Source: Alphaproteobacteria bacterium
GTDB lineage: Bacteria; Pseudomonadota; Alphaproteobacteria; CAISOG01
Reading direction: 5' to 3'
Length of the DNA stretch: 64,000 bases
Assembly: GCA_044345375.1 (NCBI GenBank)
Contig: JBIJBF010000005.1
Coordinates: 19,932-83,931 of the forward strand
Part shown: positions 5,562-59,005 of the stretch, piece after piece
How the letters are laid out: each line of letters begins with the position of its first letter
Numbering within the stretch: position 1 is the first letter of the stretch
Position numbers and translations under genes: made by a program
The notes under the pieces: generated by a model
Database searches by the model: none
What the model was told of the DNA's origin: nothing
The model's input: only the letters and a program-made list of their open reading frames with translations

Positions 5562-5688
5562 CTAGAGCATTTTCCATTTAGCCCTACACGTCGTCAGACT
5601 GCGGACTCACCGTGCTCACGTATGTAGTATACGCTCCGCGCGCTTCCCCTTGCCTTCCTAGTGTAGAACTAAAGCGAAAACGCTCTAG
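5562..5688. repeat. Family-B MITE-like repeat, copy 1 (~127 bp with 11-bp terminal inverted repeats AGAGCATTTTC/GAAAACGCTCT)
   Basis: About 90% identical to the copies at 32625-32749 and 40423-40550. Intergenic between fliQ and the amidinotransferase gene. Confidence 0.8.
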
Positions 5689-6581: not shown

Positions 6582-6656
6582 GGTAAGCTTATGGCCCCAT
6601 GTTTAAGCAGTTTGCCGCGTTTGGCAAGTGGGGGTGAAGCTCACTTGTTCCCTTCC

Positions 6657-6828
6657 TTACTTATTCCCCTCTTGCGGAGGGGTGCCCGAAGGGCGGGGTG
6701 GTTCTTTGTGTCAGCAAAAATGCAGAAAAGGACGGTTTGATGGCCAATTTTCATCATATTATCAGTCAGATAAGAACCACCCCGTCAGGCTTCGCCTGCC
6801 ACCCCTCCGCAAGAGGAGGGGAATAAGT
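6657..6828. repeat. Family-A MITE-like repeat, copy 1: full form with two hairpin-containing arms and a ~70 bp core
   Basis: Arm A (TTATTCCCCTCTTGCGGAGGGGTGCCCGAAGGGCGGGGTGGTTC) at 6661-6704 and arm A' (GAACCACCCCGTCAGGCTTCGCCTGCCACCCCTCCGCAAGAGGAGGGGAATAAG) at 6774-6827. The core (TTTGTGTCAGCAAAAATGCAG...) is shared with the 47066 copy. Confidence 0.8.
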
Positions 6829-6882
6829 CAAGCATTCCTCGCAACCATTCTCTATTATGCGTTGCGTGCAACTCGTCTGTAT

Positions 6883-7659
6883 TTAAGCGTTGCGTGCAAC
6901 GCGGGCAACGGTCAGTACCCGCACTTCGGCGGCGCCGGCGCGGAGTAGGGTGGTGGTGCAGGCGGTGGCGGTGGCGCCGGTGGTTAGCACATCGTCGATC
7001 AGCACCACTTTGGCACCGTTCAGCAGGGCTTTGGCGGACGGCTTGACCACAAAGGCGTGGGCGACGTTGCGCTGGCGTTCCCCCTGATGCAGCCCCCCCT
7101 GGCTAGGCGTGGATTTGCGCCGCAACAGCCAGCCGTGGCGGGTGGGCACCTGGCTTAGCCGGCTTAGATCCTTGGCCAACTCCGCCGCCTGGTTGTAGCG
7201 CCGTTGCCATTGCCGCCGCCAATGCAGCGGTACGGGCAGCAGGAAATCGGCATCTTGCAACACATCCGCCCCCGCCTGCCACAACAGCCGTGCCAGCCAT
7301 GGGCTGTAATCCAGCCGATCGCCATGTTTGAACGCCAGAAGATGCGGGGCGCTGTGCGCATCATACAGCCAGGCGGCACGGGCGGCGGTAAAGGGCGGTG
7401 GATCGCTAAGGCATTGGCCGCAGAGCAACGGTTCCCCATCCCCCGCTGCGGCCGCCAGCTCAGCCGCCAACGGCAGGGCGCAACGGCTGCAGGCCAGGGT
7501 CAGCAGGGTTAGATGCTGCCAACAGCTGGGGCACAGGGCGTTGTCCTGCAGCATTTGCGTGCGGCAGTTTAGGCAGCGTGGCGGCAGCAGAAAATCGCGT
7601 AAGGCGGCCACGGCCTTGCGGATGGGCTGAACAACGGTGGATTTTATGGCGGTGTGCAT
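6883..7659 (-). CDS. comF: ComF-family protein (double zinc ribbon plus phosphoribosyltransferase domain)
   Basis: CxxC...CxxC zinc-ribbon N-terminus (PPRCLNCRTQ...CPSCW) and a C-terminal PRTase motif (VVLIDDVLTTGATA). Start placed at the internal ATG (7659); the long ORF runs to 7755. Confidence 0.65.
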   Translation of the reverse strand: MHTAIKSTVVQPIRKAVAALRDFLLPPRCLNCRTQMLQDNALCPSCWQHLTLLTLACSRCALPLAAELAAAAGDGEPLLCGQCLSDPPPFTAARAAWLYDAHSAPHLLAFKHGDRLDYSPWLARLLWQAGADVLQDADFLLPVPLHWRRQWQRRYNQAAELAKDLSRLSQVPTRHGWLLRRKSTPSQGGLHQGERQRNVAHAFVVKPSAKALLNGAKVVLIDDVLTTGATATACTTTLLRAGAAEVRVLTVARVARNA

Positions 7660-15120: not shown

Positions 15121-15240
15121 AGAACCACCCCGTCAGGCTTCGCCTGCCACCCCTCCGAAAAGGGGAATAAGTAGGCCGGAAATTCCCCTATTATAATTCC
15201 CCTCCTGCGGAGGGGTGCCCGAAGGGCGGGGTGGTTCTTT
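15121..15240. repeat. Family-A MITE-like repeat, copy 2: compact form with arm A' then arm A and a short spacer
   Basis: GAACCACCCCGTCAGGCTTCGCCTGCCACCCCTCC...TTCCCCTCCTGCGGAGGGGTGCCCGAAGGGCGGGGTGGTTC, placed immediately after the trpE stop. Confidence 0.8.
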
Positions 15241-15267
15241 ATGGGGTGGTTGCGCAAAGCGTAACCC

Positions 15268-17139
15268 CTACATATCCCCCCGCAGCGATCCGCCCCAGGT
15301 TAGGCGGAGGGCGTAGAGGATGGCCAGTGCGTCGATCAATTCTTGCAGCAGGGCGCCGGTAACGGGGGGGATGGCGCCGGCGGCGGCAAAGCCCATGCCG
15401 ATCAGGCTAAGCCCGATGCCGCCGATGCCGGCCTGCAGGGCGATGCGGCGCATGGCCAGGCTTAGGTGCAGCAGCTCATCGACCTTAGCCAAGGTGTTTT
15501 CCAAAATCACCGCGCCGGCCGCCTCAGCCGTCACATTGCCGCTGCTGGTGCTGGCGCTGCCAAAGGCGATGCCAACGGTGGCGGCGGTCAGGGCAGGGGC
15601 ATCGTTGATGCCATCCCCCATAAACAGGGTGGGCGCGCGGGCGGTTTCGGCGCGCACAATCGCCAATTTTTGCTCAGGGCTTTGCGAGGCCAGGGTGTTG
15701 GGAATGCCCAGCATCGCCGCCAGATAGTCCACCTCAGTGGCGCGATCGCCCGACACCAGCATGATTTTGTCGAATTGATGTTGGGGGCCCAAATGCTTGA
15801 TAAAAAATTTGCTGTCCGCCCGTGGGCTGTCACGAAAGCGCAGCAAACCGGCGTAAGCGCCATCGATGGTGATCACGCACTCCAACCCCGCCGCGGTATC
15901 GGGCAGGCGGGCGGCGGCGCTTGGATCGCTTTTCAGCAATTTGGCGCGGGAGGTGACCTGAACGGTTTTTCCCCCCACCAAACCGGTCAGCCCCTGCCCA
16001 GCCCGCTCCCCCACGCTGCTGGCGGTCAGAAGGGGCAAGGATTGGTCGGATGCGGCCTTTAGAATCGCGCTTGCCAGCGGGTGCTTGGAATAGCGTTCCA
16101 GGCTGGCCACCAGTTGCAGCAGCTGATCGGCGGTCAGGGTATGGGCTGTATCGGCGGCGGGAGCAATATCGGTCAGTTCCGGCTGGCCATAGGTCAGCGT
16201 GCCGGTTTTGTCAAAAATGGCGGTGCGGCAGGTGGGCAGACGTTCCAGCACCGTCGGGTCTTTGATCACAATCCCGCGCCGCGCCGCCATCGAAATCGCG
16301 CTGATCAGGGTGATGGGAATGGCGATCAGCAGCGGGCAGGGGGTGGCGATCACCAGCACCGCCAAAAATCTGGTGACATCGCCAGATAGGTACCAACTGG
16401 CAAGGGCTATTCCCAAGGCAATCGGGATAAAAATCGCGCCCAATTGATCGGCCAGCCGCCGCATGGTGGGGCGTTTTTGCTCAGCCTCAACCATCACCTG
16501 CATGATGGTGGCGTATCTGGAATCGGCGGGCAGGCGGTCGGTTTGCACCACCAACACCGATTCGCCGTTGATCGCGCCGGAAAGCACGGTGGCGCCGGGC
16601 GCCTTATCCACCTGATAGGGTTCGCCGGTCAGGTACGATTCATCCATGCTGCCGTGCCCATCCACCACCGTGCCATCAACAGGGCAGGGATCATGGGGGT
16701 TGACGACGATGTGGTCGCCAAGCGCAATTTCAGCCAGCGCAATCGCCTCAATCTGCTCGCCCCGTTTGCGGTTGGCCAGGCTGGGCATGCGGTTGGCCAG
16801 GGCTGACAGCGCGGCGGATGCCCTGCGCATCGCGTAAGCCTCCAACGCTTGGCCGCCCGCCAGCATGATGACGATCAACACCGCCGCCAAATATTCGCCC
16901 AGCCAGGTGGCGACCAGCAGGGCGATGGCGGCCAACAAATCGGCGCCGAAATCCCGATGCGCCAGCTTTTGCCCAATTTGTTTCAGCATCGGAACGCCGC
17001 CCACCCCTAAGATCACCCATAGCGGCCAATTCTGCTGTAACGCTAGGTGCAAAAACATCGCCAGAAGGGCAGCCGCGCTAAGGCCAATCTGCCACGGCAA
17101 GCCCGCCAGTTGTTTGGGGAGGGAGAAACGGTGGGGCAA
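15268..17139 (-). CDS. P1B-type heavy-metal translocating ATPase without an N-terminal metal-binding domain
   Basis: TGEP actuator motif, CPC in TM6 (ATPCPLLIA), DKTGTLT phosphorylation site and GDGINDAPAL. The protein starts directly with transmembrane helices and has no GMTCxxC domain. Confidence 0.85.
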   Translation of the reverse strand: MPHRFSLPKQLAGLPWQIGLSAAALLAMFLHLALQQNWPLWVILGVGGVPMLKQIGQKLAHRDFGADLLAAIALLVATWLGEYLAAVLIVIMLAGGQALEAYAMRRASAALSALANRMPSLANRKRGEQIEAIALAEIALGDHIVVNPHDPCPVDGTVVDGHGSMDESYLTGEPYQVDKAPGATVLSGAINGESVLVVQTDRLPADSRYATIMQVMVEAEQKRPTMRRLADQLGAIFIPIALGIALASWYLSGDVTRFLAVLVIATPCPLLIAIPITLISAISMAARRGIVIKDPTVLERLPTCRTAIFDKTGTLTYGQPELTDIAPAADTAHTLTADQLLQLVASLERYSKHPLASAILKAASDQSLPLLTASSVGERAGQGLTGLVGGKTVQVTSRAKLLKSDPSAAARLPDTAAGLECVITIDGAYAGLLRFRDSPRADSKFFIKHLGPQHQFDKIMLVSGDRATEVDYLAAMLGIPNTLASQSPEQKLAIVRAETARAPTLFMGDGINDAPALTAATVGIAFGSASTSSGNVTAEAAGAVILENTLAKVDELLHLSLAMRRIALQAGIGGIGLSLIGMGFAAAGAIPPVTGALLQELIDALAILYALRLTWGGSLRGDM

Positions 17140-39868: not shown

Positions 39869-40426
39869 TTGATGTTTATTCAAACCGAATCGACCCCCAA
39901 CCCCAACAGCCTGAAGTTTATTCCGGGCCAGCCAGTGATGACCAGCGGCACCGCGGATTTCCGTGAGGTGGGCAAGGCGCAAAAATCACCCTTGGCCAAG
40001 CGGTTGTTTGCGGTTGAGGGGGTAACCGGCGTTTATTTGGGCGGCGACTTTATCAGCGTGACCAAGGATGAGGCGGCGGACTGGGTGTTGCTGAAACCAT
40101 CCCTGATCGGCGCGATTATGGATCACTACACCAGCGGCGATGTGGCGATGGCGGATGCTGCTGCGGGCGCGTCAACCCCAGCCGCGGATGACAGCGAATT
40201 GGTGCTGCAGATTAAGGAAGTGTTGGACACCAGGGTGCGTCCGGCGGTGGCGATGGATGGCGGCGATATCATTTTTGACCGTTTTGAGGATGGGGTGGTC
40301 TATCTGTATTTGCAGGGCGCCTGTTCCGGCTGCCCCAGCTCAACCGCTACCTTGAAAAACGGTATTGAGAATATGTTGCGTTATTACGTGCCAGAGGTAG
40401 AGGAGGTGCGGGCGGCCAATGGCTAG
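39869..40426 (+). CDS. Nfu-type Fe-S cluster scaffold (Nfu_N plus NifU_C domains, CxxC)
   Basis: MFIQTESTPNPNSLKF (Nfu_N) and GACSGC in the C-terminal domain. The stop TAG lies inside the terminal repeat of family-B copy 3. Confidence 0.75.
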   Translation: MMFIQTESTPNPNSLKFIPGQPVMTSGTADFREVGKAQKSPLAKRLFAVEGVTGVYLGGDFISVTKDEAADWVLLKPSLIGAIMDHYTSGDVAMADAAAGASTPAADDSELVLQIKEVLDTRVRPAVAMDGGDIIFDRFEDGVVYLYLQGACSGCPSSTATLKNGIENMLRYYVPEVEEVRAANG

Positions 40427-40550
40427 AGCATTTCCCATTTAGCCCACCACGTCGTCAGACTACGGACTCGCCGATGCTCACGTATATAGGATACGCTCCG
40501 CTCTTCTCGCCTTGTCTTCCTAGTGGTGAACTAAAGCGAAAACGCTCTAG
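40423..40550. repeat. Family-B MITE-like repeat, copy 3 (more diverged)
   Basis: CTAGAGCATTTCCCATTTAGCCCACCACGTCGTCAGACTACGG...AAAGCGAAAACGCTCTAG. Confidence 0.8.
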
Positions 40551-40569: not shown

Positions 40570-40908
40570 TTGCCGGAATCCTCCCCGCTTACCCTGTTGA
40601 TTGACACCGCGCAGGATTGTCGGGTCGGCCTGTTCGCCGGCGACCAGCTGTTGCTATGGCTTGAGGAAGATGTGGGCAAGCACCACGAAACCCACCTGTT
40701 GCCGTTGATTGACCGCGCGCTGTTGCAAGCCGGCAAGCAATTTGCGGATCTCACCCAGATCGCCGTGGTTGCAGGCCAAGGCGCCTTTACCAGCCTCCGC
40801 GTTGGGGTCGCCACCGCCAAGGCTCTGGCCTTTGGGCTGAACCTGCCGCTCTCATTCCCCTCCTGCGCAGGGGTGCCCGAAGGGCGGGGTGGTTCTTGCA
40901 ACAAATAA
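40570..40908 (+). pseudogene. tsaB: tsaB (yeaZ) N-terminal fragment, truncated where a family-A repeat enters the frame
   Basis: PLTLLIDTAQDCRVGLFAGDQLL...HETHLLPLIDRALLQAGKQFADLTQIAVVAGQGAFTSLRVGVATAKALAFGLNLPL matches the TsaB N-domain (about 95 aa). Reading then continues into repeat sequence (SFPSCAGVPEGRGG) and stops. No C-terminal half was found within 200 bp downstream (the next gene begins at 41024 on the opposite strand). Confidence 0.55.
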
Positions 40909-41003
40909 TTCGAACATGGTGCTGCTCGCGCGCATCACACGCACACCGAAGGGACCACCCCGTCAGGCTTCGCCTGCCACCCCTCCGCAAGAGGGGAATT
41001 AAG
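40851..41003. repeat. Family-A MITE-like repeat, copy 4 (full form with a distinct ~57 bp core)
   Basis: TCATTCCCCTCCTGCGCAGGGGTGCCCGAAGGGCGGGGTGGTTC...GACCACCCCGTCAGGCTTCGCCTGCCACCCCTCCGCAAGAGGGGAATTAAG. Confidence 0.8.
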
Positions 41004-47065: not shown

Positions 47066-47151
47066 GAATTCCCCTCCCGCGGAGGGGTGCCCGAAGGGCG
47101 GGGTGGTTCTTTGTGTCAGCAAAAATGCAGCAATGGACGGTTGACCAACCC
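47066..47151. repeat. Family-A repeat, copy 5: truncated (arm A plus partial core, no A')
   Basis: GAATTCCCCTCCCGCGGAGGGGTGCCCGAAGGGCGGGGTGGTTC followed by TTTGTGTCAGCAAAAATGCAGCAATGGACGGTTGACCAA, the same core as copy 1. Homology is then lost. Confidence 0.75.
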
Positions 47152-47180: not shown

Positions 47181-47235
47181 TGTTTAGTTCCTTAGTCTTG
47201 CGGTATAACATACCGCAAGACTAAGGAACTAAACA
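47181..47235. repeat. Perfect inverted repeat with 26-bp arms and a 3-nt loop (TGTTTAGTTCCTTAGTCTTGCGGTAT-AAC-ATACCGCAAGACTAAGGAACTAAACA)
   Basis: Checked by hand: the right arm is the exact reverse complement of the left. AT-richer than the surrounding DNA. It sits exactly where homology to the transposase remnant ends. Confidence 0.85.
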
Positions 47236-47371
47236 AATAATGTCCCAATCATCCGCCCTGCAAAGCACCCCCACCAGCGTCACCAACAACACCTCGCTCA
47301 ACGAATACGTCACCATCCCCGCCACCCGATGGTTCGGCACGTCCTTGATATACTCCAAAAAGCTTATCATC
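47222..47371 (-). pseudogene. ISAs1-family (H-repeat-associated) transposase, N-terminal 45-aa remnant
   Basis: MISFLEYIKDVPNHRVAGMVTYSLSEVLLVTLVGVLCRADDWD matches the DDE_Tnp_1-associated N-terminal domain of ISAs1 transposases. GAGGAG Shine-Dalgarno upstream. The frame then runs into the palindrome and stops. Confidence 0.6.
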
Positions 47372-47510
47372 GTGGGTTCTCCTCACAAAACCCACAAAAA
47401 ACCCGCCCAAAATTAATAAATCGTTAACGATTGAGTATTTCGCCCTGTTTTGTGCAGCAGGGGGGTGATTTTATGTAGCAAGGGGGTGCTTTTGTGCTAA
47501 AAGATCGGGT

Positions 47511-58884: not shown

Positions 58885-59005
58885 TCTTAATTCCCCTCCC
58901 TTGGAGGGGTGGCCGGCGCAGCCAGCCCCCCATTAAAAATTTTCAGGGGCACCCGGGCCCCTTTAAAAATTTGTCAGGCGCAGCCTGACGGGGTGGTTGC
59001 CTATC
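58885..59005. repeat. Family-A repeat, copy 6 (degenerate)
   Basis: AATTCCCCTCCCTTGGAGGGGTGGCCGG...CAGGCGCAGCCTGACGGGGTGGTTGCC retains the hairpin modules but is diverged. Lies directly after the yidD stop. Confidence 0.55.

Follow-up and report, generated by a model that had tools for sequence, protein, structure and literature searches.

Two-hairpin repeats in an alphaproteobacterial contig: probable non-autonomous relatives of a cross-phylum DUF559 cassette

What is the GC-rich, hairpin-rich element that recurs at six loci in a 64,000-nt stretch of an alphaproteobacterial genome (contig JBIJBF010000005.1 of assembly GCA_044345375.1), and, if it is mobile, what mobilises it? [quoted passage not shown] The reading that we favour is that the window copies are doublets of a ~45-nt module without an open reading frame (ORF), that a small selfish cassette, which occurs in many bacterial phyla, has this module as its conserved terminal inverted repeat, and that the DUF559 nuclease encoded by such cassettes would act on the window copies in trans. 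We give this reading a probability of about 0.6. Put in terms of known repeats, the window copies are probably non-autonomous, MITE-like passengers of a DUF559 selfish element, comparable also to REPINs (inverted doublets of repetitive extragenic palindromic, REP, sequences), with a mobilising chemistry that we infer.

The window contains ten units of one module, spread over the six loci, with the consensus aATT-CCCCTCC-N3-GGAGGGG-TG-[variable hairpin]-GGGGTGG-tt, i.e. two hairpins followed by a G-rich tail. The initial annotation took its arms A and A' for two different sequences; they are one module in opposite orientation, and only hairpin 2 differs. That is, arm A (type 1) is the module on the plus strand with a short hairpin 2, GCCC-GAA-GGGC, and arm A' (type 2) is the same module on the minus strand with a longer hairpin 2, GCAGGC-GAA-GCCTGAC. 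Arm A was matched, with at most 3 mismatches over 44 nt, at positions 6661, 15194, 32836, 40852 and 47066, all on the plus strand, compared with 0 matches in shuffled sequences, and its 25-nt centre, GGGGTGCCCGAAGGGCGGGGTGGTT, is identical in all five copies. The 34-nt core of arm A' occurs at 6775, 15123, 32779 and 40953. A covariance model of the unit (R1), built solely from units of other organisms, retrieved nine units in the window at 27-68 bits plus a degenerate tenth at 24 bits, and found nothing further with E < 0.1 save reverse-strand echoes of the units' palindromic hairpin 1. The mismatch search against shuffles and, for all six loci, the covariance model bear out the recurrence, and the element is, as first described, modular, hairpin-forming, multi-copy and non-coding. 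Its parts in the window are as follows.

6661-6704, plus strand: copy 1 arm A (type 1), with hairpin 1 CCCCTC-TTGC-GGAGGGG, hairpin 2 GCCC-GAA-GGGC and tail GGGGTGGTTC; 60.6 bits, E 4e-17.
6705-6773: copy 1 core of 69 nt, flanked by tail-to-tail units and not similar to DUF559 cassettes.
6774-6824, minus strand: copy 1 arm A' (type 2), with long hairpin 2 GCAGGC-GAA-GCCTGAC; 38.4 bits.
15122-15171, minus strand: copy 2 arm A' (type 2), head-to-head with copy 2 arm A.
15172-15193: copy 2 head-to-head spacer of 22 nt; 0-40 nt is typical of the family.
15194-15237, plus strand: copy 2 arm A (type 1); 68.2 bits.
15240-15269: 30-nt segment at the tail of copy 2 arm A, with a second GGGGTGGTT and a hairpin GGTTGCGC-AAA-GCGTAACC.
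32778-32827, minus strand: copy 3 arm A' (type 2), head-to-head; model match.
32836-32879, plus strand: copy 3 arm A (type 1); 67.4 bits.
40852-40895, plus strand: copy 4 arm A (type 1); mismatch search and model match.
40896-40951: copy 4 core of 56 nt, unrelated to the copy 1 core.
40952-41002, minus strand: copy 4 arm A' (type 2); model match.
47066-47109, plus strand: copy 5 arm A (type 1), directly 3' of the uvrA stop codon.
47110-47150: copy 5 core fragment, which corresponds to the first part of the core of copy 1; it has no partner unit.
58887-59002, plus strand: copy 6, degenerate unit; 24.3 bits (58887-58927) and 10.8 bits (58966-59002).

Two forms of the element had been distinguished, and both exist: copies 1 (6661-6824, core of 69 nt) and 4 (40852-41002, core of 56 nt) are tail-to-tail doublets, and copies 2 (15122-15237, spacer of 22 nt) and 3 (32778-32879, spacer of 11 nt) are head-to-head doublets. 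Copy 6, however, is not of the A-core-A' form but is one split unit, which has kept hairpin 1 and the tail but carries an AT-rich palindromic insert of ~46 nt in its middle, with hairpin 2 duplicated. Copies 1 and 5 have the first ~40 nt of the core in common (95% identity over 75 nt). The outer ends of the arms, ACTTATTCCCC and GGGGAATAAGT, are likewise inverted, so that terminal inverted repeats, as in MITEs, are present. All five type-1 units lie on the plus strand, which is G-rich throughout the window, and the window units keep one chromosome-strand polarity whichever way the neighbouring genes run. With n = 5, the strand bias of type 1 would fit a single-strand mechanism that depends on the replication strand. 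The genes flanking the copies are housekeeping genes (comF-like, trpE, P-type ATPase, serS, comEC, nfuA, uvrA, rplU, rpmA), and the siting at gene 3' ends holds, in that there is at least one gene end upstream of every copy. The statement that all copies are intergenic is nearly right, the exception being copy 4, whose arm A provides the last 17 codons and the stop codon of a truncated tsaB-like ORF (40570-40908); of the 212 positions in the TsaB model, this ORF matches 2-88 only, and the C-terminal half is missing at the locus.

Evidence for our reading comes from the genes beside such units. The ORFs adjoining units clustered into one family of ~115 aa, belonging to Pfam DUF559 (PF04480; E 1e-26 to 1e-31). 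In 14 loci selected by their units, a DUF559 ORF is located exactly between a plus and a minus unit in tail-to-tail arrangement, and the full cassette consists of a plus-strand unit, a leader of 14-20 nt, the ~115-aa ORF, and a minus-strand unit abutting the ORF end. For the reverse test, 80 metagenome loci were picked solely by two DUF559 peptide patterns, and R1 found 336 units in these loci (346 kb). By a strict regular expression, a plus unit occurs upstream of 62 of the 74 evaluable DUF559 ORFs, mostly 14-21 nt away, and a minus unit downstream of 54 of the 74, mostly overlapping the last codon; 51 ORFs have units on both sides and 65 on at least one side. R1 furthermore supplies flanking units for eight of the nine DUF559 ORFs missed by the regular expression. 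A module family exists whose link to DUF559 ORFs of this subfamily is nearly constant. Within the cassettes the upstream unit tends to be of the long-hairpin type and the downstream unit of the short type. Fic-domain genes (motif HPFREGNGR) were also seen between tail-to-tail units, in two loci (L121:1664-2389 and L177:199-1004).

The spacing of units connects the window copies to this family. Over all loci, tail-to-tail spacing is bimodal, at 20-100 nt where no ORF intervenes and at 350-500 nt where DUF559 does, and head-to-head spacing is mostly 0-40 nt. The cores and spacers of the window fall within the distributions of 200 foreign loci, which makes the window forms ordinary ORF-less members of the family; in the unit-selected loci, ORF-less doublets in fact outnumber ORF-bearing ones.

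The folded form of the unit is under selection. In 54 gap-free units, double changes affect three of the four pairs of hairpin 2 (25 cells), a result reached by 0 of 500 shuffles, and slid controls collapse. Among 134 distinct units beside DUF559, in an alignment that is model-fitted, which favours structure, double changes were found in 8 of 11 pairs, including four of the seven pairs of hairpin 1 (C-G to U-A), with 94 cells and again 0 of 500 shuffles. Such covariation fits folding of RNA or DNA alike. Hairpin 2 varies from 3 to 8 pairs in length, and its loop is GAA, GCA, GTA, GGA or AAA in most units (GAA 59, GCA 20, AAA 16, GTA 14). G-N-A triloops closed by C-G form very stable DNA mini-hairpins, and Hirao and colleagues reportedly described the stability of the d(GCGAAGC) hairpin; because GNA triloops are stable in DNA, DNA is favoured as the active form. 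Copy 1 folds strongly as single-stranded DNA (-53.6 kcal/mol, z = -10), and in this fold the arms pair while the unlike hairpin 2s protrude, giving a four-way-junction-like shape.

In the unit-selected loci ~11% of units lie within long ORFs, in either orientation and in all reading frames. Since the frame and the orientation in which units are translated vary from host to host, conservation is at the nucleotide level, and this variation together with the covariation of hairpin 2 rules out a coding cause. Intrinsic terminators were also considered and rejected: the units have no T-run, weak terminator matches occur at two arms only, the regional count is not above that of shuffles, and orientation is independent of the genes.

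The distribution of the module is wide. A scan of one genome per species with the pattern CCCCTCC-N3/4-GGAGGGGTG-N8/20-GGGGTGG, for which a rough estimate gives a chance expectation below 1 match, found it in at least 120 genome stretches. Phyla among the matches listed are Bacteroidota, Verrucomicrobiota and other members of the Planctomycetes-Verrucomicrobia-Chlamydiae group, Cyanobacteria, Firmicutes, Chlorobi, Chloroflexi and Patescibacteria; the same matches include Fibrobacteres, Cloacimonadota and Alpha-, Beta-, Gamma- and Deltaproteobacteria, and, as cultured isolates, Flavobacterium spp. and Serratia microhaemolytica. Flavobacterium akiainvivens and Salinimicrobium are examples of complete genomes with many units. 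Bases outside the pattern are also kept (the T at -1 is invariant and ATT is usual), and the 34-nt type-2 core of the window is identical in Chlorobiaceae, Ca. Porisulfidus and several metagenome contigs. The initial annotation had set conservation at orthologous positions in distant relatives against a mobile repeat; conservation in distant relatives is indeed found, as that of a family, but the positions are not orthologous.

Among 2.9 million viral contigs, 34 stretches matched, a rarity that rules out a mainly phage element, and blastn with copy 1 against plasmid and phage collections gave no match. Searching the whole window against Rfam at the gathering threshold gave two tRNAs only, and at E up to 10 nothing above 14 bits was found on 6600-6900. 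A literature search, outside which most subscription journals lay, found no description of the repeat or of an association of DUF559 with such units. A variant unit family was seen at L010:238-2992, with hairpin 1 CCCCCTTCC...GGAAGGGGG and tail-to-tail doublets that have a common ~50-nt core, and other variants (CTCCTCC/GGAGGAG) occur at L035, L052, L105 and L157.

With E up to 1e-20 as the cut-off, the DUF559 subfamily numbers over 3,000 protein clusters, named in the sources as 'endonuclease domain-containing protein' or 'very-short-patch-repair endonuclease', and its sources include Francisella, Myroides, cyanobacteria and an archaeal metagenome-assembled genome. Acidic and histidine residues typical of a Vsr-like site are invariant. 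By sequence profile, the only solved relative is PDB 3HRL, whose function is uncharacterised. A fold model predicted from database proteins (predicted local distance difference test, pLDDT, of 88.7) had 3HRL as its first match in Foldseek, followed by the I-Bth0305I catalytic domain (E 8.7e-5, TM 0.59/0.74) and, after it, Vsr, so that in the predicted model DUF559 has a fold related to that of homing endonucleases. DUF559 has been grouped with Vsr and the homing endonuclease I-Bth0305I (PMC3424549), and Vsr-like free-standing homing endonucleases are documented (PMC2677866). Further fold matches were several RAP-like proteins from the mitoribosomes of apicomplexans and ciliates, along with the endonuclease domain found in R2 retrotransposon proteins. 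The modelled fold of DUF559 hints at use on RNA and in other mobile elements.

Cassettes can reside in-frame inside host genes. In 35 of the 80 DUF559 loci, the frame continues open on either side of the cassette for 80 aa or more, and the host ORFs translated in eight loci, mostly restriction-modification genes, include those of HsdR, HsdS, Mod methyltransferases, type IIG enzymes and a radical-SAM protein, in a set that, being picked by DUF559, is enriched for restriction-modification cases. In HsdR, the cassette is found in-frame at one identical site (after ...YHQYYAVNRAVESTLRA), with one to three upstream units, in 16 loci (L131, L136, L143, L150, L151, L155, L161, L165, L166, L168, L170, L175, L180, L182, L184 and L051), and the HsdR of Francisella salina (L260) is empty at this site. 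F. salina TX07-7308 (CP002872.1, L260:2858-3381) has a stand-alone DUF559 gene (at ~296.4 kb) between hsdS and hsdR, with a head-to-head GC-rich unit pair directly upstream; as a cultured, AT-rich organism it would offer a convenient experimental system. Two Bacteroidota methyltransferase orthologues differ in the same manner, one carrying the full cassette (L111) and the other being empty (L036), and their solo units differ too. The L036/L111 and L131/L136 alignments are too diverged to place junctions, a target-site duplication or a cleavage site.

The window copies are located at or beside structural differences between strains. In strain contig L204 (~98-99% nucleotide identity), the A'-A pair of copy 2 is identical to that of the window, and an AT-rich stretch of 1,061 nt (L204:2488-3548) takes the place of window positions 15240-15269, precisely at the arm A tail. 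This insert carries the gene of a 295-aa pentapeptide-repeat protein, and its far end is a degenerate A'-like sequence. At copy 1, positions 6635-6817 are missing from strain contigs L214 and L215, where the junction reads GTGGGGG/AATAAGT, the last 11 nt of arm A' are kept and 26 nt of the left flank are lost; these retained and lost nucleotides, with the GGGG boundary, suggest a microhomology deletion and not an empty site. As to presence/absence variation of the kind envisaged for a mobile element, copy 1 is missing from two contigs and the tail of copy 2 differs, but the copy 1 allele is an imprecise deletion. The right flank of L214 is 95.7% identical to the window versus 100% for the left flank, which suggests a recombination boundary at copy 1. 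Copies 2, 3 and 5 are present in every strain contig spanning their sites, and copy 4 is spanned only by L211, which is 99.9% identical to the window and thus essentially the same strain. The window copies are sites of instability and cargo exchange. A 30-nt near-tandem duplication beside copy 1 (6849-6878, GCGTTGCGTGCAAC...) is missing in L214, and strain contig L222 departs from the window left of 47345, near copy 5.

How could a DUF559 nuclease maintain such copies? On the reading favoured here, the active form would be folded DNA, either with two hairpins per unit or with paired arms and the unlike hairpin 2s standing out, in a cruciform that resembles a four-way junction. The folded units would be recognised and nicked by a DUF559 nuclease encoded at another place in the genome, and copies would spread or persist via repair or recombination, in the way that REPINs need the REP-associated tyrosine transposase (RAYT), or MITEs a transposase, in trans. 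Convergent gene ends would be places where insertions are tolerated. Since ORF-carrying relatives exist, the mobile-element part of the first description can be retained and 'non-autonomous derivative' is a reasonable label.

A number of observations weigh against this reading. No DUF559 gene was found in the 64-kb window, also by profile search. Comparison of the window cores with the DUF559 ORF (blastn-short) gave only chance 13-mers, which speaks against the cores as DUF559 remnants and leaves descent by internal deletion unsupported. No direct repeat flanks any window copy, i.e. the target-site duplication of MITEs is missing, no clean empty site was found among the strain contigs, and the one deletion allele, at copy 1, is best read as a product of GGGG microhomology. 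The constancy of the units across phyla, near base-for-base, is unusual for selfish repeats and unlike the fast-diverging REP/RAYT pairs. What favours DNA over RNA as the active form is loop statistics and context only, and to our knowledge no biochemical activity has been described for DUF559, a very widespread domain. Moreover, other cargos occur between units (Fic-domain and pentapeptide-repeat genes), so that the units may be recombination hot spots exploited by several genes.

The two Fic loci and the pentapeptide gene keep alive two of the rival explanations, one of which is the strongest of those weighed, though in our view unlikely. It holds that the units are an independent repeat of the REP type or of the type of bacterial interspersed mosaic elements (BIMEs), e.g. 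an mRNA 3'-end stabiliser or a protein-binding site, and that DUF559 homes to the tail-to-tail junction, where the units serve it as homology arms only; the window copies would then be unoccupied targets, not derivatives. Such an explanation would account for the excess of ORF-less doublets in unit-selected loci, for cores that are unrelated to DUF559, for the other genes between units and for the position of every window copy after at least one gene end, and it agrees with a homing endonuclease being the nearest characterised relative by fold. However, the ORF-less cores range from 11 to 93 nt and have no common 'empty site' sequence, cassettes with one unit per side occur inside genes without a pre-existing doublet, and a separate dispersal route for the units would still be required. 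Furthermore, the units are not intrinsic terminators, and those of the window have one strand polarity though the flanking genes differ in direction.

We consider it improbable that the element acts at the RNA level, whether as a cis-regulatory or stabilising 3' structure, as a small RNA, or as an RNA partner or substrate of DUF559 through its RAP-like fold. The covariation supports a fold that could be RNA as well as DNA, the right-hand unit abuts the ORF 3' end and would be part of the mRNA, most window copies come after gene ends, and RAP-like mitoribosomal proteins are among the fold matches. Nevertheless, orientation in the window tracks the chromosome strand and not the direction of neighbouring genes, the loops are mostly GNA triloops, where stable RNA hairpins typically have tetraloops, units are found within ORFs in both orientations and all frames, and Rfam gave no family match, neither at the gathering threshold nor with E up to 10, all of which weakens the structured-RNA alternative of the initial annotation as well. 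Very improbable, finally, is the other rival kept alive by the additional cargos, in which unit pairs would act like integron attC or other folded recombination sites and a recombinase encoded elsewhere would swap DUF559, Fic and pentapeptide cassettes: strains ~98-99% identical do differ exactly at an arm A tail (30 nt versus 1,061 nt) and two loci have Fic-domain genes between units, but the cargo is overwhelmingly DUF559, each cassette has two inverted units and not one site as with attC, many units are solitary or within genes, and no integrase was seen near units in the loci examined in detail, no systematic search having been made.

Returning to the DUF559 cassette as the proposed source of the module, its architecture is closest to the REPIN-RAYT system (PMC3116915). 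Both have short GC-rich palindromic units, mostly in inverted doublets with predicted single-strand hairpins, a small enzyme gene bracketed by units, many enzyme-less intergenic doublets, clusters or arrays, and excision-like alleles that lie off the element boundaries. Membership fails on the enzyme: no RAYT partner was seen, and the flanked ORF is PF04480 DUF559, a Vsr-like PD-(D/E)XK protein and not a HUH/Y1 (IS200/IS605-like) transposase. In addition, the units described here are near-constant across phyla, whereas REPs are lineage-specific; they have two hairpins and a G-rich tail, and their cassettes also occur in-frame within genes.

With bacterial MITEs such as Correia/NEMIS, ERIC and RU (PMC3184786, PMC2759123), the window copies share small size, lack of coding capacity, terminal inverted repeats, multiple copies and ORF-carrying relatives, and some MITEs likewise occur in-frame within genes (PMC3184786, PMC2759123). 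They differ from MITEs in the missing target-site duplication, in an ORF-carrying relative that encodes no known transposase, and in the occurrence of both doublet polarities, as in mosaic elements. Enterobacterial BIMEs are mosaics of two REP types with linkers. As in BIMEs, units of two subtypes follow one another in inverted orientation, and linkers that vary give rise to several mosaic forms, but sequence, partner enzyme and cross-phylum distribution set the present units apart.

By predicted fold, the closest systems are the Vsr-like homing endonuclease genes (I-Bth0305I, PDB 3R3P; the 'fractured genes' nucleases, PMC2677866), which also are small selfish nuclease ORFs in host genes, often genes of DNA metabolism, and which have no conserved hairpin ends. 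A group I intron houses I-Bth0305I, and split inteins flank the nucleases of the 'fractured genes', whereas the present cassette has neither intron nor intein; its nuclease is translated within the host frame and is bracketed by conserved hairpin repeats. Ogata et al. are said to have described, in 2000, Rickettsia palindromic elements inserted in-frame in protein-coding genes. These resemble the in-frame cassettes in being palindromic repeats that leave the coding frame unbroken, but are confined to Rickettsia, AT-rich and without a nuclease gene.

A possible analogue is found in Escherichia coli K-12, where the end of the DUF559 gene ycjD (L123:8040-8840) abuts a CCCTCTCCC...GAGGGGG hairpin. 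Beyond it follow a partial duplicate of the ycjD 3' end and then a repeat with a hairpin and a G-rich tail, GGGGAGAGGG-TTA-GGGTGAGGGG, which we take to be BoxC and of which an E. coli genome has a median of 16 occurrences (5,426 genomes). R1 has no match around ycjD, which rules out membership in the family; the repeat is at best analogous or belongs to a very distant family, and is a lead only.

The wider proposal is that DUF559 nucleases and two-hairpin units together make up a class of nuclease-driven mobile elements, spread across phyla and not recognised before, with autonomous (ORF-bearing), non-autonomous (doublet) and in-frame intragenic forms. We advance it tentatively, at slightly under even odds. 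If it is true, DUF559 would be the 'RAYT-equivalent' for a set of orphan GC-rich hairpin repeats, possibly including the one beside ycjD, a large domain of unknown function would gain a function, and repeats left unexplained for decades would gain a mechanism. The reciprocal link between DUF559 and the units provides a concrete, testable candidate substrate for DUF559, and a REPIN-like arrangement of repeat and cognate enzyme exists with another enzyme class. In-frame cassettes may shape restriction-modification systems. In practical terms, the units break short-read assemblies and add spurious N- or C-terminal extensions to annotated proteins, so that a unit model would improve annotation. 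Short-read contigs of the strains examined often end at repeats, either within or beside the units described here (Family A) or just after serS, at a repeat of a second family.

This second repeat (Family B, ~124 nt) occurs at 5562-5688, 32625-32751 and 40423-40550 and has terminal inverted repeats CTAGAGCATTTTCC...GAAAACGCTCTAG. Strain contig L213 lacks the copy at 5566-5684, and its junction shows an overlap of 4 nt, CTAG; this clean presence/absence allele and overlap identify Family B as a classical MITE. Downstream of copy 5 of Family A there are a 26-nt perfect palindrome (window 47181-47235) and, at ~47272-47421, a 49-aa ORF with a DDE_Tnp_1_assoc match, i.e. a transposase-associated remnant related to insertion sequences. 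The organism occurs in samples ERZ27272083, JGI 3300033994, 3300042387 and 3300042924, and SRR27420416. The window has a GC content of ~57% and encodes MipZ, which we take as a marker of Alphaproteobacteria; its cumulative GC skew climbs over nearly the whole length, from which it probably lies on one replichore. The lineage is poorly sampled, TrpE homologues being at most 54% identical apart from one 98% relative of the same species.

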